Source: an uncultured Syntrophaceae bacterium (lineage in GTDB: Bacteria; Desulfobacterota; Syntrophia; Syntrophales; UBA2210). Taken from it: 62,830 bases of DNA. Positions 1,854 through 51,271 of this stretch are shown here, piece by piece (positions within the stretch are counted from its first letter, which is position 1; each line of letters opens with the position of its first letter). The position numbers were made by a program, and so were the translations under genes. The stretch lies in contig CAZINZ010000004.1 of the NCBI GenBank assembly GCA_964540715.1, forward strand, positions 1-62,830. Reading direction: 5' to 3'. Below the pieces are notes generated by a model, which was given only the letters and a program-made list of their open reading frames with translations, was not told the DNA's origin and ran no database searches.

Positions 1854-2933
1854 TTAATCCTCTTCCAGGTGCTGGCGGTAATAGAGGCTGCTTATCACCT
1901 TGGCTATTTCATCAGGGGTTGAAACAATCCCCCCCGGCCGTCCATAGAAGTGCACGTTGCTTCTTCCCTCCAGGGATAGTTTTACATCATCCAGCATCTG
2001 TCCTGTATTCATTTCAACGACGAGGAAATCCTTAACTGATCTGCTCATTTCCCTGATGACACGTTCAGGAAAAGGCCACAGGGTAACAGGTCTTAAAAGA
2101 CCCACCCTAAGTCCCATCTCGCGCGCTCTTTTTATGCCGCCTTTGGCTATCCTTGCTGCAGTCCCGTAAGCGACAACCACAAGTTTGGCATCTTCAGTCA
2201 TGTAAGTTTCCGCATCCGCGATTTCCCTGGAAATAATCTCGTATTTTCTTGCGAGCTTCCAGTTGTGTTCTTCCATCTCCACCGTGTTCAGGATCAAGGA
2301 TTTTATTATTCTACTTGGTCTTCCATTTGCCCCGTTCAGTACCCATGGCTTGGGGGGCAGCTCAGTGAGATCGATGGGATCAGGAAAGATAACAGGTTCC
2401 ATCATCTGGCTCATCATGCCGTCGGCCAGTATCATAACAGGTGTCCGGTATCTGTCCGCGTATTCAAAGGCTTTTCTTGTGAGATCCGCTATCTCCTGGC
2501 CGTAAGCTGGAGCCAGAACTATAGTACGATAATCTCCGTGTCCTCCGCCCCTTGTAGCCTGAAAGTAATCTCCCTGAGAAGGTGCTATATTGCCGAGACC
2601 TGGCCCACCACGCATGCTGTTTACAATTACCGCGGGAAGTTCCGATGCTGCCAGAAATGATATACCCTCCTGCTTGAGGCTTATACCCGGGCTGGATGAA
2701 CTGGTCATTGCCCTCGCACCCGCCATGGATGCCCCGAGTACCATGTTTATAGCGGCGATTTCACTTTCGGCCTGAATGAAGGTGCCGTCATCCAGTTTGG
2801 CCATGGCGCTGGACATGAATTCCGGGAGTGCATTCTGCGGTGTTATGGGATAACCAGCATAAAAATTACATCCGGCGCGTATGGCTGCCTCACCGATTAC
2901 CTCGCTTCCTTTCATTAACAGCTTTTTATCCAC
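1854..2933 (-). CDS. vorB: 2-oxoacid:ferredoxin oxidoreductase alpha subunit (3-methyl-2-oxobutanoate dehydrogenase VorB-like)
   Basis: Motifs 'AGYPITPQ', 'QAESEIAAINM', 'SSSPGISLKQE', 'RGGPGLGNIAPSQGDY', 'VEMNTGQM'. Confidence 0.9.
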   Translation of the reverse strand: MDKKLLMKGSEVIGEAAIRAGCNFYAGYPITPQNALPEFMSSAMAKLDDGTFIQAESEIAAINMVLGASMAGARAMTSSSSPGISLKQEGISFLAASELPAVIVNSMRGGPGLGNIAPSQGDYFQATRGGGHGDYRTIVLAPAYGQEIADLTRKAFEYADRYRTPVMILADGMMSQMMEPVIFPDPIDLTELPPKPWVLNGANGRPSRIIKSLILNTVEMEEHNWKLARKYEIISREIADAETYMTEDAKLVVVAYGTAARIAKGGIKRAREMGLRVGLLRPVTLWPFPERVIREMSRSVKDFLVVEMNTGQMLDDVKLSLEGRSNVHFYGRPGGIVSTPDEIAKVISSLYYRQHLEED

Positions 2934-3174
2934 GATAGACCTCTATTGCGATATCAGGGCAGATAACCGCGCACATGGCACAGCCTGTACATTTGCGATT
3001 TTTGTCGGCATTTGTTTCTGTGAATTCGGCAGGATGATACCCCTTTTCGTTTAATTCAGTAGAAATGACAATAAGCTTGCTCGGACATACCGACATGCAG
3101 AGATAACATCCCTTGCACAGTTTACTGTCGATTACTATTCTGCCTTTTTTCGGGTTCATGGTCATAAGTTCCAC
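2926..3174 (-). CDS. 2x[4Fe-4S] ferredoxin, oxidoreductase delta subunit
   Basis: CKGCYLCMSVC and CTGCAMCAVIC motifs; first gene of the operon. Confidence 0.93.
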   Translation of the reverse strand: MELMTMNPKKGRIVIDSKLCKGCYLCMSVCPSKLIVISTELNEKGYHPAEFTETNADKNRKCTGCAMCAVICPDIAIEVYRG

Positions 3175-3249
3175 TCAGATTAAATGCTATTGTGAATTTC
3201 CCGGCAACAGGGTGTAAAAAGTTGGACTTCCTTTCAAACGTAGCGTTGC

Positions 3250-3278
3250 AACATATTCTCACCATCTTGTTTTGTCAA
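3250..3278 (-). promoter_or_regulatory. Putative sigma70 promoter of the oxidoreductase operon
   Basis: Minus strand TTGACA (3278-3273), 17 nt, TATGTT (3255-3250). Confidence 0.6.
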
Positions 3279-3656
3279 GGCTTTTATTGGTACTTAGTTT
3301 TATTGGTACTGTCAGAAGCAATTAATATGTCCGGAGTTGTAGCACGTAAACTGTCCGGTTAAGATGAGTCATCGGGAGCTGACTCATGAGATGGACAGAG
3401 ATACTATCTGATAAATCAGACGATGCTGAATATTTATTCGACGTGAATATGCGCCGGCTAAATCACCTGTCAGTTTTTCATAAGGAGGTGGAACTTTATA
3501 TGGGTTTTTGCGCAGGATATTAATCAATGCTTCAGCTTTCTGTTTGAGGCCGGAAGCAGATAGTTTAGTTGCATCCCTCCTCAGGAATCAGTTGCAGGTT
3601 TGTTCAGGAATGGGTGGCAGGTTTGGGCAAGAATCTGCAAAGAATGTCGAAATTAT

Positions 3657-4262
3657 CTATTGCCCCGCAGCGGTCGCAACCGTTTCATTTGTCCTGTTGT
3701 ACTCCAGAATTTCGGCGAAACAGTTATCCGGTCCAAGAAGAGATTCGATGTTTGCGGGAGAAAAGGGACAGAAACGAAACAGACGATCCTCCATTTTTTT
3801 TGTTTTTTCATAGAGTATCTGAATATATTCCCTGCTCTTTGAGTCTGTTCCATATCTTTCGATTATGTAATCTTTTCGTTGTGAGAGGGTTGCCACTTTG
3901 TCGTGAACCACACGTTTATCCGCGTAATTAACCACATCCGCTTCTGTCGGACTGTCGGAGGCGAAGTATTCGCTCAGACGAACATGTTGTCCGACGATGT
4001 TTCCAACTTCGGGATAACCCAGGTTGATGAGCAACTCTTGTCCAGTCTGTGCGTGATTCTCATGGGTCTGGATGCTTCTCGTTTTGGTTATATCGTGCAT
4101 CAATGCAGCAGCCTGGACAAGGTCCGGGTTGAGGTTTGTCTCAATGGACCTCGTGAGGAACATGGCTACGCGGCAGACCTGAAGTGAGTGGGCCACGATA
4201 TGGTCCATCATTTCCATTTCATACATGATATGAAAACATTCGTGCCTGGTTGGTATCCGCAT
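3657..4262 (-). CDS. HD (HDIG) domain phosphohydrolase
   Basis: 'HIVAHS...AALMHDITK...HA..G...HV...ADKRV' HD motifs; start taken at MRIPTRHEC (the ORF track extends to GTG 4286). Confidence 0.85.
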   Translation of the reverse strand: MRIPTRHECFHIMYEMEMMDHIVAHSLQVCRVAMFLTRSIETNLNPDLVQAAALMHDITKTRSIQTHENHAQTGQELLINLGYPEVGNIVGQHVRLSEYFASDSPTEADVVNYADKRVVHDKVATLSQRKDYIIERYGTDSKSREYIQILYEKTKKMEDRLFRFCPFSPANIESLLGPDNCFAEILEYNRTNETVATAAGQ

Positions 4263-4354
4263 ATATGCCCGTCCTTTGTGATGCACTTTGTAACAGAAAG
4301 ATTAAAAAAATGCGAGGCAGATCTTCTGGTCACACTGACAGTAAGGGGGATGGT

Positions 4355-4780
4355 TTAAAAAAAGCCGTTTCCGAATGAAAGAGTTCCACGCTCGCCGGTG
4401 AGTCTTGTGTCTATGTGTGTGGGTGGAAATGTTGTGCCGTACATGCCGGCAGCGGTTGCCACGGAATCGCCCATTTCCAGGGCGTTCGCATCAAGATCAT
4501 GGGCAATTAAGGAACATCCGAATTTTTCTTTAAAATATGGCGCCGAACCGATGTGATCTATGTGACAATGGGTTAGGATCAGCGTTGATATTCTGGCTGG
4601 GTCCCTGTCGAGGGCTTTTATATTTTTCACAAGTCGATGCGAAGTCCTGCCCGCTCCGGAATCAATCATAATCAACTCATCACTGCAATCGATAATAAAA
4701 GAGGTTGCGTCCTCCGGGTGTGATATGTCGGGTCCCCCTGTTATATATACGCAATCGGCAATTTTTCTCTCCTGTTTCAT
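4355..4780 (-). pseudogene. C-terminally truncated metallo-beta-lactamase-fold hydrolase
   Basis: 141 aa with 'IDSGAG' and 'THCHIDHIG' motifs, but stops before the downstream H(T)PGH and D/H metal ligands; I found no continuation in the other two frames. Confidence 0.65.
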
Positions 4781-4796
4781 GATGATTCACCACTTC

Positions 4797-4841
4797 ATTT
4801 CATGTAAAGGGTGTTATTTTGAATGTTAATAATGACTCAAC
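4797..4841. repeat. 45-bp exact direct repeat, copy 1
   Basis: ATTTCATGTAAAGGGTGTTATTTTGAATGTTAATAATGACTCAAC, identical to 5275-5319. Confidence 0.97.
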
Positions 4842-4885
4842 ATAAGATTGCTGGTTGATCCGGCATGGTTACTTTTTCAAAAGAA

Positions 4886-4913
4886 ACCCGGGAAGTAGCT
4901 GCGCTTCCCGGGT
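4886..4913 (-). terminator. Intrinsic terminator
   Basis: 10-bp perfect stem ACCCGGGAAG/CTTCCCGGGT, 8-nt loop, followed on the minus strand by TTCTTTT. Confidence 0.8.
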
Positions 4914-5015
4914 AAGAATGTGCTCGCCGATCAGGATTTCGTCGGACTTGATTTAGCCGGCCTTACAGGGTTTAAGCTCGAATCGGAGGAGGTTTGATTC
5001 GTTCTTGAGTAATTA

Positions 5016-5197
5016 GTACAGCAAACTTCGTGTCAGAGATCGGGTGTCTGTCTAAGTGTCTGAAATATAGTTATCCTTTTTACAGGTACCATGATAATTG
5101 ATTTTCTGGTTACCTGGAATGGTGGAACAAAATGTCGAAATAAACCGAAGTGCATGTGAAAATACCGTAAGAAAATAAAGATCAGAGTTTGCTGTAC
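5016..5197. mobile_element. 182-bp segment bounded by a perfect 12-bp inverted repeat (MITE-like, unassigned)
   Basis: GTACAGCAAACT at 5016-5027 and AGTTTGCTGTAC at 5186-5197; no ORF spanning it and no clear target-site duplication. Confidence 0.35.
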
Positions 5198-5274
5198 AGT
5201 TGAATGGTTAAGTCGTTTAGGAAATAAGGGAGTCAAATCAATACATTAGAATTTCAATTCAATCGAGTGTCTGA

Positions 5275-5319
5275 ATTTCATGTAAAGGGTGTTATTTTGA
5301 ATGTTAATAATGACTCAAC
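5275..5319. repeat. 45-bp exact direct repeat, copy 2
   Basis: Identical to 4797-4841; runs into an 8-nt tandem array ACTCAACT-ACTCAACT-ACATAACT (5313-5336). Confidence 0.97.
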
Positions 5320-5547
5320 TACTCAACTACATAACTACTTATCGATGTCTGAACTTCATGTTCGGGAGGCCTTCGGGCAAAAAACGACATAATTGTCGAG
5401 CCGGGGAAAACGGGGCCAATCCCTTGATAGAAATAACATCGGTCCTGGAACATGGGAGATATCAGTATCTGGGCAGTCTGAATTCCGACAGAAAAGGAAA
5501 GTATATGCTGTCGTAAGGGCGCACCCATTTTTTATTATTCTGAACAA

Positions 5548-7257
5548 TTACAGAATCACATTCAATATTCCCCCGACTGCGAGGGACGATGTCAGCATTA
5601 TGCCGGTCGATTTCATAAAGTCTTTCAAGCCCAGCTCTCTGAACAGTACCACGACGGTGGCAATACATGGAAAAGACATGGTCAGGACAACGCTGCCTAC
5701 GACCATCTGTTTGGCCGTCATCGGGGATAATGCCAGCATTCCGAGAGCGGCATCCTTGCGGAGTAATCCTATAATAATCGCTGTAACCGACTCTTCTGGC
5801 AGGCCAAGTACACCCTTTATTACGGGAGCTGTGAAGTCGGCTATATAGTTGAATATTCCTGAGACAAAAAGTATGTTAATAACCAGCACCGCCGCCAATA
5901 TTATCGGGACGGCCTCTATTAGAAAACCGCGTGTCCTTCCCCAGAGCTTCTGTATGATCGTGCCCCATGGAGGGATGCGGTATGGGGGAATTTCGATGAG
6001 GAGTTCGGGGCTGAATCCCTTTAACAGTCGATTAAGAATTATTCCCAGGATTATCCACACGAGAAGCAACGTCGCATAAACGATTGCCACATATTGTCCG
6101 CCATACTTTCCAACCAGACCGAAAATCATTGCCTGGGCGGAAGCGCAGGGTACCGCTATCGATATCAGCGTTGCGGCTATGAACCGCTCCCTTTTGCTTT
6201 CAAGTACTCGTGTTGCCATTACGGCCGGCACATTGCATCCAAACCCCAGCAGGGATGGTATAATCGCGAAGCCGTGCAACCCGACTTTATGCATTGCGGT
6301 GTCGAGAAGTACCGCGAGACGTGGCAGGTACCCGGTGTCTTCAAGGATACCGAGGATAACATAAAAGGATATGATATATGGGAGTACCATGGCAAGGGGC
6401 ACATAAAGGCCGCTGCTCAACAGGCCAAAGGATTCAATGAAGTGGATTTCTCCGTCAAACAGTTTGCCTACTATGACATCATGCAACAAGCCGCTCTTCC
6501 CCATTAACGCGCTGAGTTTCATCAACGCTGGCAGCCACAGGAAATTGAATATGGGATCAAACAAATAGTTTATCAGGAATTCGCCTAAGAAGCGTATTAC
6601 TATAAAAGAGCCTGACAGGACTGCCGCGGCCATAAATATACCCGATACAGGCTTTACGCTTGCGTCCTCGAGACGTTCAAACCATCGGTGATGCCTGTGT
6701 GATCTCTGCTGTACCTGATTTGTTATATACCCTACGAAGGACCAGCGTTCATCGCGGTTTCTCACCGTAGAAGATGGTGATACGGCTTTGGAAATACCTG
6801 TTACAAGATCCTTTATTCCCTGACCGGTCAGACCTGATGTGGGGATAACAGGTATTCCGAGGATTTCGTTGAGTTTTTCAAGGTTGATGCTTATCCCGCG
6901 ATGTTTTGTGTCGTCCCACATATTCAGGGCGATTATCATGGGGATTTCCTTTTCCATTAACTGTAGTGTCAGGTAGAGATTTCTTTCGAGGTTTGTCGAG
7001 TCAACGACATTAATTACAATATCGCCCGTCTTGAGCATTTCAGAGGCAATTCTTTCGGCTTCACATGTGGGCTCAAGGGTATATGTTCCGGGCACATCAA
7101 TGATCTCAACCTGCCTGCCGTCTATTTTCATGAAACCGCTTGTATAGTTGACAGTAGTCCCGGGATAATTGGATGAGATAACGCGTACCCCCGTGAGCCG
7201 GGAAAAGACGACACTTTTGCCGACATTCGGATTGCCCATAAGCAGGATTTTCATCAT
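5548..7257 (-). CDS. feoB: Ferrous iron transporter B
   Basis: G1 'GNPNVGKS', G2 'NYPGTTV', G3 'DVPGTY', 'NMWD'; membrane part with 'GFGCNVPA' and 'PCASAQ' gate motifs. Confidence 0.95.
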   Translation of the reverse strand: MMKILLMGNPNVGKSVVFSRLTGVRVISSNYPGTTVNYTSGFMKIDGRQVEIIDVPGTYTLEPTCEAERIASEMLKTGDIVINVVDSTNLERNLYLTLQLMEKEIPMIIALNMWDDTKHRGISINLEKLNEILGIPVIPTSGLTGQGIKDLVTGISKAVSPSSTVRNRDERWSFVGYITNQVQQRSHRHHRWFERLEDASVKPVSGIFMAAAVLSGSFIVIRFLGEFLINYLFDPIFNFLWLPALMKLSALMGKSGLLHDVIVGKLFDGEIHFIESFGLLSSGLYVPLAMVLPYIISFYVILGILEDTGYLPRLAVLLDTAMHKVGLHGFAIIPSLLGFGCNVPAVMATRVLESKRERFIAATLISIAVPCASAQAMIFGLVGKYGGQYVAIVYATLLLVWIILGIILNRLLKGFSPELLIEIPPYRIPPWGTIIQKLWGRTRGFLIEAVPIILAAVLVINILFVSGIFNYIADFTAPVIKGVLGLPEESVTAIIIGLLRKDAALGMLALSPMTAKQMVVGSVVLTMSFPCIATVVVLFRELGLKDFMKSTGIMLTSSLAVGGILNVIL

Positions 7258-7493
7258 GTCTGCTTGTCCACCTCAATAAATATCTTTCCGGCCATGCCGA
7301 AACCTATAGCCACTTTTGTTGTGTCTATCCGGATAGTGACGGGTCCATGTAACAACATTGAACTTACTTTTGATATCTTTTTGCCCGTTCTGATTCCAAG
7401 AGAGTTAAGACGGTTAATCAATCCCTGTCCGCCCCTGATTTCATGTACGATGCCGCTCTCTTCTGTGTTCATATCATTCAGAGATTTAATCAC
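7254..7493 (-). CDS. feoA: Ferrous iron transport protein A
   Basis: 79 aa SH3-like FeoA pattern 'RLNSLGIRTG...GPVTI...VAIGFGMA'; 4-bp overlap with feoB. Confidence 0.92.
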   Translation of the reverse strand: MIKSLNDMNTEESGIVHEIRGGQGLINRLNSLGIRTGKKISKVSSMLLHGPVTIRIDTTKVAIGFGMAGKIFIEVDKQT

Positions 7494-7666
7494 TATATAC
7501 AGTTTTCCTTCCTTGAAACAATCAGAGGACAGGCAACTTCAAGCCCCATAACTCAAAGGATCCTGTCCCCATATTCTGACATGCTACCACATCTACACGA
7601 CTATATGTAAGTGGTGGTACAAAAATGTTTGTTTGTAATGATTGTTCGAATCAGGCCGGTGTTTGG

Positions 7667-7867
7667 CTAAGCTGGCATAACATTTTTTGCCTGTAAACCG
7701 CGGTTGGTTTCCTCCACATCAAAGATAACTTCGTCACCTTCGACAATTGTCTTGAAACCGTCCATGTTAATCGAAGAATAATGCACGAATAAATCCTGAC
7801 CATCTTCCTGTTGAATAAAACCGAACCCTTTCTTCTCATTAAACCATTTTACGATTCCCTTTGCCAA
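7667..7867 (-). CDS. csp: Cold-shock protein (CspA family)
   Basis: 'KGIVKWFNEKKGFGFI...DLFVHYS'; TTG start at 7867 behind an AGGAGG SD gives 66 aa. Confidence 0.95.
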   Translation of the reverse strand: MAKGIVKWFNEKKGFGFIQQEDGQDLFVHYSSINMDGFKTIVEGDEVIFDVEETNRGLQAKNVMPA

Positions 7868-7921
7868 GATCACAATCCTCCTTCTTAAAAGTAATTGTCG
7901 CCCCCACCCCAAACACACGAA

Positions 7922-49766: not shown

Positions 49767-49834
49767 ATGATATCCTTCTGAAAATACACTTCCCTTGAAA
49801 AGTATTATTGCCGAATGAGAATACAGGCGAAATA

Positions 49835-51271
49835 ATGGTTTTTGAACTCAAACAGAATCTTAAACTGACTCAGCAGTTGATCATGACGCCGCAACTGCAG
49901 CAGTCGATCAGGCTTCTCCAGCTTTCGAGATTAGAGTTGATTTCTGCAATAAGCCAGGAACTTGAAGAAAATCCCCTCCTTGAAGAGCAATCTCCCGGTA
50001 ATGATCCTGAGACGGAAATTGTCCCGGAACTTGACGATATGAAGATTGAAACAAAGACGAGGGAAATCACAGGTGAAGGGGATGGAAAAGAGGATTTTGA
50101 CTGGGAAAGCTATATAGAAGATTTTGGACCTATGGGTGTACCCATTCATCAAGAGGATACAGACGCACCCCCTTTCGAGAATATGATTACCGAAACAAGT
50201 TCTCTCTCAGATCATCTCCTGTGGCAGCTTAACCTGTCCCGATTTACCGATGTGGAAAGACGTGTGGGGGAGCAAATAATCGGCAACTTAAACACTGAAG
50301 GATATCTCATGGCAACCACTGATGAGATTGCATCAATAGAAGATGTGGATCCGTACATGATTGAAGAAGTCCTTAATCGTGTGCAAAAATTTGATCCACT
50401 GGGTGTTGCTGCGAGAGATTTGAAGGAGTGTCTGCTCACACAGATAAGTTTTCTGGATGTTGATTCATCACTTACAGGTAAGATTATAGAATACCACCTG
50501 AAGGATCTTGAGACGAGAAATTACAACAATATAGCGAGGAAACTGAAGGTTTCTGTTGATGAAGTCGAGCAGGCGGCGTTGCTGATACTAAAACTGAATC
50601 CTAAACCCGGACTCCTTTACAACGAGGAAAGGTCACATTATATAATTCCTGATGTATTCGTTTTTAAGGTTGGTGACCTGTACAGGATTGTCCTGAATGA
50701 TGACGGCCTTCCGAAACTGAGGATAAGCAACTTTTATAAGAAAATTATGGGTGATACTCAAAATCACGACGGAGAAAAGTGTAAGGAATATATCAAGGAC
50801 AAAATGCAATCCGCAGCCTGGCTGATAAAAAGTATTCAGCAAAGGCAAAAAACGATCTACAGGGTCTCGGAGAGTATCGTCGAGCATCAGATGGAGTTTC
50901 TTGAAAATGGTATCAGTTATTTAAAGCCCATGGTTCTGAGAGATATTGCCGATGATATAGAGATGCATGAATCAACAATCAGCAGGGTCACTGCTAATAA
51001 ATACATGCATACGCCGAGGGGAATATTTGAACTTAAATATTTTTTTAATAGTGGGATAAACAGGATTGGCAATCTGCAGATAGCATCGCAAAGTGTCAAG
51101 GAAAAGATCAGTGAGATAGTCAGCGGGGAAGATGAAAAAAAACCTTATAATGACAGTCAGATAGTTGATATTCTCTCTGGATACAAAATATCCATAGCAA
51201 GAAGAACCGTAGCGAAATACAGGGAAATGCAGGGAATACTCCCATCATCCAAGAGGAAAAAATATTTCTGA
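49835..51271 (+). CDS. rpoN: RNA polymerase sigma-54 factor
   Basis: Gln/Leu-rich region I 'MTPQLQQSIRLLQL', 'HESTISR', RpoN box 'ARRTVAKYR'. Confidence 0.98.
   Translation: MVFELKQNLKLTQQLIMTPQLQQSIRLLQLSRLELISAISQELEENPLLEEQSPGNDPETEIVPELDDMKIETKTREITGEGDGKEDFDWESYIEDFGPMGVPIHQEDTDAPPFENMITETSSLSDHLLWQLNLSRFTDVERRVGEQIIGNLNTEGYLMATTDEIASIEDVDPYMIEEVLNRVQKFDPLGVAARDLKECLLTQISFLDVDSSLTGKIIEYHLKDLETRNYNNIARKLKVSVDEVEQAALLILKLNPKPGLLYNEERSHYIIPDVFVFKVGDLYRIVLNDDGLPKLRISNFYKKIMGDTQNHDGEKCKEYIKDKMQSAAWLIKSIQQRQKTIYRVSESIVEHQMEFLENGISYLKPMVLRDIADDIEMHESTISRVTANKYMHTPRGIFELKYFFNSGINRIGNLQIASQSVKEKISEIVSGEDEKKPYNDSQIVDILSGYKISIARRTVAKYREMQGILPSSKRKKYF

Follow-up and report, generated by a model that had tools for sequence, protein, structure and literature searches.

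The window analysed here is a stretch of 62,830 nucleotides, contig C4 of a metagenome-assembled genome (MAG) of 128 contigs, 2.52 Mb and 47% G+C. On its minus strand lie feoA (7254–7493), feoB (5548–7257), a gene for an MBL-fold protein of 141 aa and an HD-domain gene (3657–4286), and the region between feoB and the MBL gene (Table 1) is the subject of this study. An earlier note had pointed there to two identical 45-mers enclosing a segment with no convincing gene. The repeat search bore out the 45-mers: copies 1 and 2 are 100% identical over 45 nt, with starts 478 bp apart and 433 bp between them, and an exact 45-mer cannot occur twice by chance. When the complete 2.52-Mb assembly was searched on both strands with up to 8 substitutions tolerated, the 45-mer was found at these 2 sites only. 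No piece of 4781–5560 or of the interior was found elsewhere in the genome by blastn-short. The BLASTN comparison of 45-mer and interior that the earlier note had proposed separated the two, the interior being conserved in relatives and the 45-mer being absent from the approximately 25 relatives searched.

The full form is carried by all four assemblies, that is, by the window genome and three assemblies from other samples. JGI contig Ga0075123_10007142 equals window 3297–7899 without difference, both 45-mers included, and contigs of ENA ERZ27315977 (k141) and JGI 3300005932 are 100% identical across 5600–4301. In the assembly collection, 74 indexed blocks contain the 141-aa MBL product in exactly this form. 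Upstream of feoA, on the minus strand at 7722–7795, a match to the cspA thermoregulator is weak (16 bits, E=0.63), falls far short of the gathering score and is probably a chance match; a cold-shock-domain gene is called there in other assemblies.

Table 1. Features of the feoB–MBL region in window coordinates
Feature	Position	Strand	Evidence or remark
UAS1 (putative), palindrome TCGACAATTATGTCG(T)	5384..5399	-	arms kept, centre variable in ~25 relatives
Insertion E, ~177–183 bp	about 5180..5359	-	absent in all relatives; splits UAS1 from UAS2; carries copy 2
Copy 2 (R2) of the 45-mer	5275..5319	-	exact identity; embedded in species-specific insertion E
UAS2 region, blocks TTTACGGTATTTTCAC and TTTATTTCGACATTTTGTTCC (half-site TCGACA)	5124..5179	-	alignments with relatives
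Conserved ATTTCAGACACTTAG block between UAS and promoter	5050..5069	-	alignments
Sigma-54 promoter position, TGACAC-N5-TTGC here	5019..5036	-	TGGCAC-N5-TTGC in relatives
Predicted sRNA gene, ~130 nt	about 4880..5010	-	covariance model R1, 117 bits; structure, covariation, terminator
SL1	4979–5001	-	5-bp stem, loop AAACCUCCUCC
Invariant linker AGCUUAAACCCUGUAA	4963–4978	-	
SL2	4926–4962	-	10-bp stem in consensus fold
Intrinsic terminator	4879–4913	-	hairpin CCCGGGAAG...CTTCCCGGG, then T run
Segment q, ancestral distal MBL 5' UTR	4842..4878	-	28/37 identical to L039, counted by hand
Copy 1 (R1) of the 45-mer	4797..4841	-	exact identity; clean ~45-nt insertion in MBL 5' UTR, 16 nt before ATG
Truncated MBL-fold gene, 141 aa (226 aa in relatives)	4355..4780	-	internal deletion, junction 4357–4383

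The statement that the interval holds no convincing gene is correct for protein genes, since no small ORF of the interval has a Pfam match, and fails for RNA. Every one of the 13 genomes of the genus conserves window positions 4879–5184, at 69–75% DNA identity and at the feoB–MBL/HD locus, and an exact-pattern scan of GTDB genomes identified the carriers as MAGs of uncultured Syntrophales or 'Syntrophaceae'. Searches of the region with Rfam (E up to 1) and ARAGORN returned nothing relevant. From this comparison, the interval is the site of a resident, conserved gene for a predicted small RNA (sRNA), of a previously undescribed family that has no match in Rfam.

The consensus fold of the RNA consists, in order, of SL1, the invariant single-stranded GAGCUUAAACCCUGUAA, SL2 and the terminator. 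The loop of SL1 displays an anti-Shine-Dalgarno sequence, CCUCCUCC, and the invariant GCUUAAACCCUG comes after it. Terminator prediction confirmed the strong minus-strand terminator that the earlier note had placed at 4886–4913. Changes on both sides are seen in 18 of the 26 pairs, counted in an alignment of 24 sequences that was fitted to the covariance model itself; in the same model-fitted alignment 93% of the cells are paired, as against 21–54% when the partners are slid by 1–3 columns. The SL1 and linker of the window genome are the same as in relatives, so that the seed is intact. Its SL2 contains a single C·A mismatch and is absent from the minimum-energy fold computed for the local sequence.

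A single copy per genome was detected by covariance model R1 in 12 of the 13 genomes of the genus. Across the order, 34 of the 301 genomes sampled gave matches, and these extend to other genera and to two additional families. The neighbors of the sRNA in the distant families are unrelated (a NUDIX gene; squalene synthase and histidine kinase genes; a solute-binding protein gene), which argues for a free-standing sRNA and not a leader of the HD/MBL genes. A cis-acting leader of these genes had been suggested by synteny within the genus and was rejected as the main reading because of these contexts. The family has what is expected of a trans-acting sRNA: its own promoter (in the relatives), an intrinsic terminator, no conserved ORF and a structure supported by covariation. 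Its most probable mode of action is in trans, at ribosome-binding sites. When the seed was compared with crude translation-initiation regions in a genome-wide duplex-energy scan, the pairing was unspecific because an anti-Shine-Dalgarno sequence pairs with many Shine-Dalgarno sequences, and we claim no target.

Upstream of the RNA, the alignments have a constant order on the minus strand: the palindrome TCGACAATTATGTCGA, approximately 45 nt, the blocks TTTACGYYATTTTCAC and TTTATTTCGACATTTTRTTCC, the ATTTCAGACACTTAG block, the promoter and the sRNA. The promoter of the relatives, CTGGCAC-N5-TTGCW, is a textbook sigma-54 promoter, and the transcript would begin about 12 nt past its GC. The corresponding position in the window lies approximately 250 bp downstream of copy 2. 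The −24 GG is GA in the window genome and in the three other assemblies, so the window sequence does not have the −24 GG/−12 GC pair, at 10-nt spacing, that marks a sigma-54 promoter. Both GG and GC, in TGGCAC-N5-TTGC or a close variant, are kept in every other member examined. Upstream activator sites are present in the window genome, which also carries rpoN and about 10 bEBP genes. The window that contains the sRNA locus also contains the rpoN gene, on the plus strand at approximately 49800–51270 (Sigma54_DBD 206 bits, 490-aa open frame). We regard the locus as a sigma-54 unit by descent; the activity of the promoter in the window genome is uncertain. A second lineage with a damaged-looking sigma-54 promoter is a relative (L017 / L052; G009, JAFDAI010000023.1) that has lost approximately 28 nt, including the −12 TTGC and the predicted sRNA start, and retains TGGCAC and the remaining RNA.

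The arms of the UAS1 palindrome, TCGACA...TGTCGA, are invariant across approximately 25 relatives, distant families among them, and its centers vary (ATTA, ATTG, TTTG, AAAG, TTTT and CTTT). In one complete genome an RmuC gene stands between UAS1 and feoB, with the palindrome still next to the sRNA. Invariant arms, a variable center and a palindrome that stays with the sRNA away from feoB are the behavior of a protein-binding site and not of a weak feoB terminator, as had been suggested earlier for UAS1. We therefore treat UAS1 as a putative site for an enhancer-binding protein. The ATTTCAGACACTTAG block appears IHF-site-like, with a resemblance to WATCAANNNNTTR seen by inspection only. The spacer between feoB and UAS1 is itself variable: in L012/L039/L040 and L021 it contains, on the opposite strand, a strictosidine-synthase-like gene or an RmuC gene or fragment.

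Within its own genome the palindrome is found at 6 sites with at most 1 mismatch and TTCGACATTTT at 4 sites; a scan for the palindrome at up to 2 mismatches was uninformative, with 408 matches. The palindrome and TTCGACATTTT come together only at the sRNA locus and on contig C43. The latter site, outside the window (C43:1558–1900, locus L055), has the sites CGACAATTTTGTCG and TTTCGACATTTT, a sigma-54 promoter GTGGCATGAAGATTGCT and an RNA of approximately 100 nt. In this RNA the hairpin CCGGAAA-CUCCCUCCUG-UUUUUCCGG precedes CUUAGGCCCUGAAA, after which comes a terminal hairpin. Its loop, CUCCCUCCUG, is an anti-Shine-Dalgarno sequence, and the motif CUUAnnCCCUG is common to both RNAs; its alignment to covariance model R1 is weak (13 bits). 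Of 13 sister genomes, 9 conserve the C43 RNA along with the UAS and promoter that belong to it. It is divergent from genes for a histidine kinase (1959–3809) and an NtrC-type regulator (3806–5170; Response_reg, Sigma54_activat and HTH_8). Going by the co-occurrence of motifs only, this regulator probably activates both RNAs.

The window genome differs from its relatives in the arrangement of these elements. Among relatives whose MBL gene is intact, the nearest (L039, GCA_030588265.1; MBL 87% identical in amino acids) has the canonical layout, with approximately 45 nt between UAS1 and UAS2, then CTGGCACACAAATTGC, the sRNA, a spacer of approximately 160 nt and an MBL gene of 226 aa, and has no copy of the 45-mer. 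A further relative (L040) has the same canonical layout, again without the 45-mer. The insertion that separates the activator sites in the window genome, E, is a patchwork. It contains an imperfect 20-nt direct repeat, X1/X2 (5341–5359 and 5262–5281), an 8-mer tandem at 5313–5338, a TTCAGACACT duplicated from the conserved block at 5055–5064 and a 12-nt inverted copy (5186–5197) of the promoter −12 region (5016–5027). The 8-mer tandem ACTCAACT (5313–5340) also has 18-nt matches of 94% on contig C100, at 8–33 and 1516–1541, in what appear to be tandem arrays.

On the other side of the sRNA, approximately 105 nt after the terminator are missing, where relatives have a conserved TTTCCAATATAC block and the MBL upstream region. 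Because of this loss, segment q is fused directly to the sRNA terminator. Segments q and u (4781–4796) are contiguous in L039, and copy 1 stands exactly between them in the window, which makes it a clean insertion of approximately 45 nt; no microhomology is evident at its junctions. The deletion within the MBL gene joins two TTTCC.T..GGAAA microhomologies. An independent truncation, to 115 aa, is found in L040 (L040:2780–2850), and the MBL gene is altogether absent from most relatives. Given the independent truncations and the absence from most sister species, the MBL gene looks dispensable and decaying. The two MBL deletions share an end point, a GGAAACGGC hairpin just past the ancestral stop (window 4355–4383; L040). 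Local alignment of R and E to the sRNA–MBL spacers of six relatives, evaluated with shuffles, gave nothing significant (best p=0.03, 1 of 12 tests) and yielded no derivation of R from the ancestral spacer. Judged against the relatives, both copies of the 45-mer are derived and confined to this species.

The account that we favor, and consider reasonably probable, is that the sRNA gene is the resident of this locus and the 45-bp repeat is a recent templated copy, produced by a local rearrangement in this species only. Ancestrally, as in the relatives, the sRNA would be made from a sigma-54 promoter and end at the strong terminator, with an NtrC-type response regulator presumably activating it through the two upstream sites (TCGACA-N4-TGTCGA and TTTCGACATTTT). 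Several small, homology-poor events would then have remodeled the locus in this species alone: a patchwork insertion of approximately 180 bp, E, would have arisen between the two activator sites, approximately 105 nt would have been lost downstream of the terminator, and the MBL gene would have been hit by a microhomology deletion. In the simplest history, E arose first, and a 45-nt piece of it would later have been duplicated into the MBL 5' UTR, 478 bp downstream and with its orientation kept. The ends of the repeat coincide with the ends of the insertion at copy 1 and fall inside a larger novel segment at copy 2, which points to copy 2 (or E) as the template and copy 1 as the product. The short direct and inverted copies, together with a microhomology deletion, suggest template switching during replication or templated break repair. 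We infer in this way the mechanism of copying and its direction, and also that no function has to be assumed for the repeat itself.

As to timing, the earlier note had read the exact identity as a sign of a recent event or active homogenization, and the recent event is supported. Segment q is approximately 24% diverged from the nearest relative, yet the two copies agree at 45 of 45 positions, which suggests a very late copy or homogenization. With 90 sites at risk, the 95% bound would be about 0.03 substitutions per site. Selection or homogenization would also fit an exact 45/45 identity.

A different possibility is that the 45-mer is a duplicated regulatory module, a promoter or operator that places the sRNA and MBL units under one control. 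The upstream copy would replace or supplement the crippled sigma-54 promoter and give a transcript of approximately 390 nt, and the copy at the MBL gene would replace the deleted upstream region. Several observations agree with it: the −24 GG is lost only here while the sRNA seed stays the same as in the relatives, the native MBL upstream region is deleted with copy 1 now close before the start codon, and both copies are oriented toward downstream units. A candidate promoter can also be picked out by inspection within the 45-mer, TTAACA-N17-TACATG, which is the best internal one, scores 8/12 and is without the final T. However, a scan of 4200–5800 with a sigma-70-type consensus (cut-off 9/12, 16–18 nt spacing, −11 A and −7 T) gave only one site, at 4808–4779, which takes the end of copy 1 as its −35 and the region of the MBL start codon as its −10. 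The same scan found no site of at least 9/12 in the context of copy 2. The TTGAGT that the earlier note had read as a −35-like box has no acceptable −10 partner. Nor does the likeness to a Fur box survive, as the best match to GATAATGATAATCATTATC (19-bp consensus) is 11/19 and 38% of the AT-matched 45-mers of the genome score 11 or more, so that there is no match above background. The 45-mer contains no TCGACA activator site, and the MBL gene is a truncated remnant with little to regulate. We therefore find a promoter or regulatory role of the 45-mer unsupported at the level of sequence, and consider the duplicated module unlikely.

The proposal of a duplicated promoter that drives an RNA of about 380 nt was right in one respect, as there appears to be an unannotated RNA that ends at the terminator noted before. 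It does not hold in the others: the predicted RNA is approximately 130 nt long and has its own sigma-54 promoter in relatives, and no sigma-70-type match of at least 9/12 was found in the context of copy 2. Loss of the −24 GG, taken with the new sequence upstream, might mean that the sRNA now depends on a promoter brought in with E, in which case the repeat would have a function. The boldest form of the idea is that the 45 nt are a portable regulatory module, whose templated copying put the GG-less sRNA under sigma-54-independent control and made the downstream MBL-remnant/HD unit respond to the same signal. This we regard as quite improbable; if true, it would be promoter capture for a regulatory RNA caught in the act.

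The insertion of both copies relative to the relatives could also be explained if a small mobile element, either a MITE or an IS fragment, had inserted at the locus on two occasions and decayed afterwards. The locus is indeed a hotspot for insertions and deletions, with genes that vary among relatives (RmuC, the strictosidine-synthase-like gene, and MBL present or absent). But there are two copies only in the genome and none in the relatives or viral contigs; a 26-mer from the repeat had no match in viral contigs and, among JGI metagenome contigs, matched the same locus and no other. The similarity stops abruptly at 45 nt, and there is neither a transposase nor, at copy 1, a terminal inverted repeat or target-site duplication. 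We give this explanation little credence.

The earlier note had also offered an attL/attR scar or excisable cassette, in which recombination would delete or circularize the sRNA gene and, with it, UAS2. At 45 bp, exact direct repeats have the length needed for an occasional RecA-dependent deletion. Against this reading, the interior is ancestral at the site and is present without repeats in approximately 25 relatives, and since both repeat copies are derived, they cannot be the attL and attR of an inserted cassette. No empty site was found: the sRNA gene stands at the same locus, without repeats, in 12 of the 13 genomes of the genus and in further genera. No integrase or recombinase gene is present among the neighbors (FeoA/B, MBL, HD, POR subunits and a radical SAM protein), and all four assemblies have the full form. 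Attachment sites or programmed excision are thus highly improbable here. An assembly artefact, in which a repeated k-mer would have produced a spurious loop such as a 128-contig MAG might contain, was named as a refuting outcome by the earlier note and is already effectively refuted by the three agreeing assemblies from other samples, one of which was built with a k of 141, larger than 45.

Several sRNAs of other bacteria depend on sigma-54, among them Qrr (with LuxO), GlmY (with GlrR) and CrcZ (with CbrB). The Syntrophales family, with its orphan sigma-54 promoter, upstream activator sites and short terminated transcript without an ORF, resembles these and the noncoding RNAs of Desulfovibrio vulgaris, where four are included in the sigma-54 regulome and some lie beside their regulators (Kazakov et al. 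2015, PMC4641369). The C43 paralogue shares the latter trait, as its RNA gene adjoins its two-component NtrC-type regulator. What sets the Syntrophales family apart from those sRNAs is its seed, in which the invariant GCUUAAACCCUG comes after an anti-Shine-Dalgarno CCUCCUCC loop. The family shows no relationship to them in sequence or in Rfam, and the copy in the window has no regulator gene linked to it.

Template switching, whether at quasipalindromes or mediated by microhomology, yields templated or ectopic short duplications. The remodeled locus is like its products in having short exact direct and inverted copies of nearby sequence clustered with microhomology deletions, and differs in that no clear microhomology is seen at the junctions of the 45-nt copy. 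As in attL/attR pairs and integron-type cassettes, exact direct repeats bracket a segment that does not code for protein; here, unlike in those systems, the bracketed DNA is resident, the repeats themselves are new, and there is no integrase and no polymorphism of empty and occupied sites.

The repeat that drew attention to this locus is, by the account that we favor, an ordinary but well-documented scar, an example of a regulatory intergenic region that was reshaped, within a single species, by short templated copies and by deletions at microhomologies. What is new is a predicted sRNA family of uncultured Syntrophales, absent from Rfam, with a sigma-54 promoter, a pair of activator sites and an anti-Shine-Dalgarno loop. 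The species, in which 180 bp split the activator sites and the −24 GG is gone, offers a natural variant for comparison with its relatives. Together with the RNA on contig C43, the family suggests a testable regulon of two sRNAs in energy-limited syntrophs, and the two-component regulator on C43 probably controls both.
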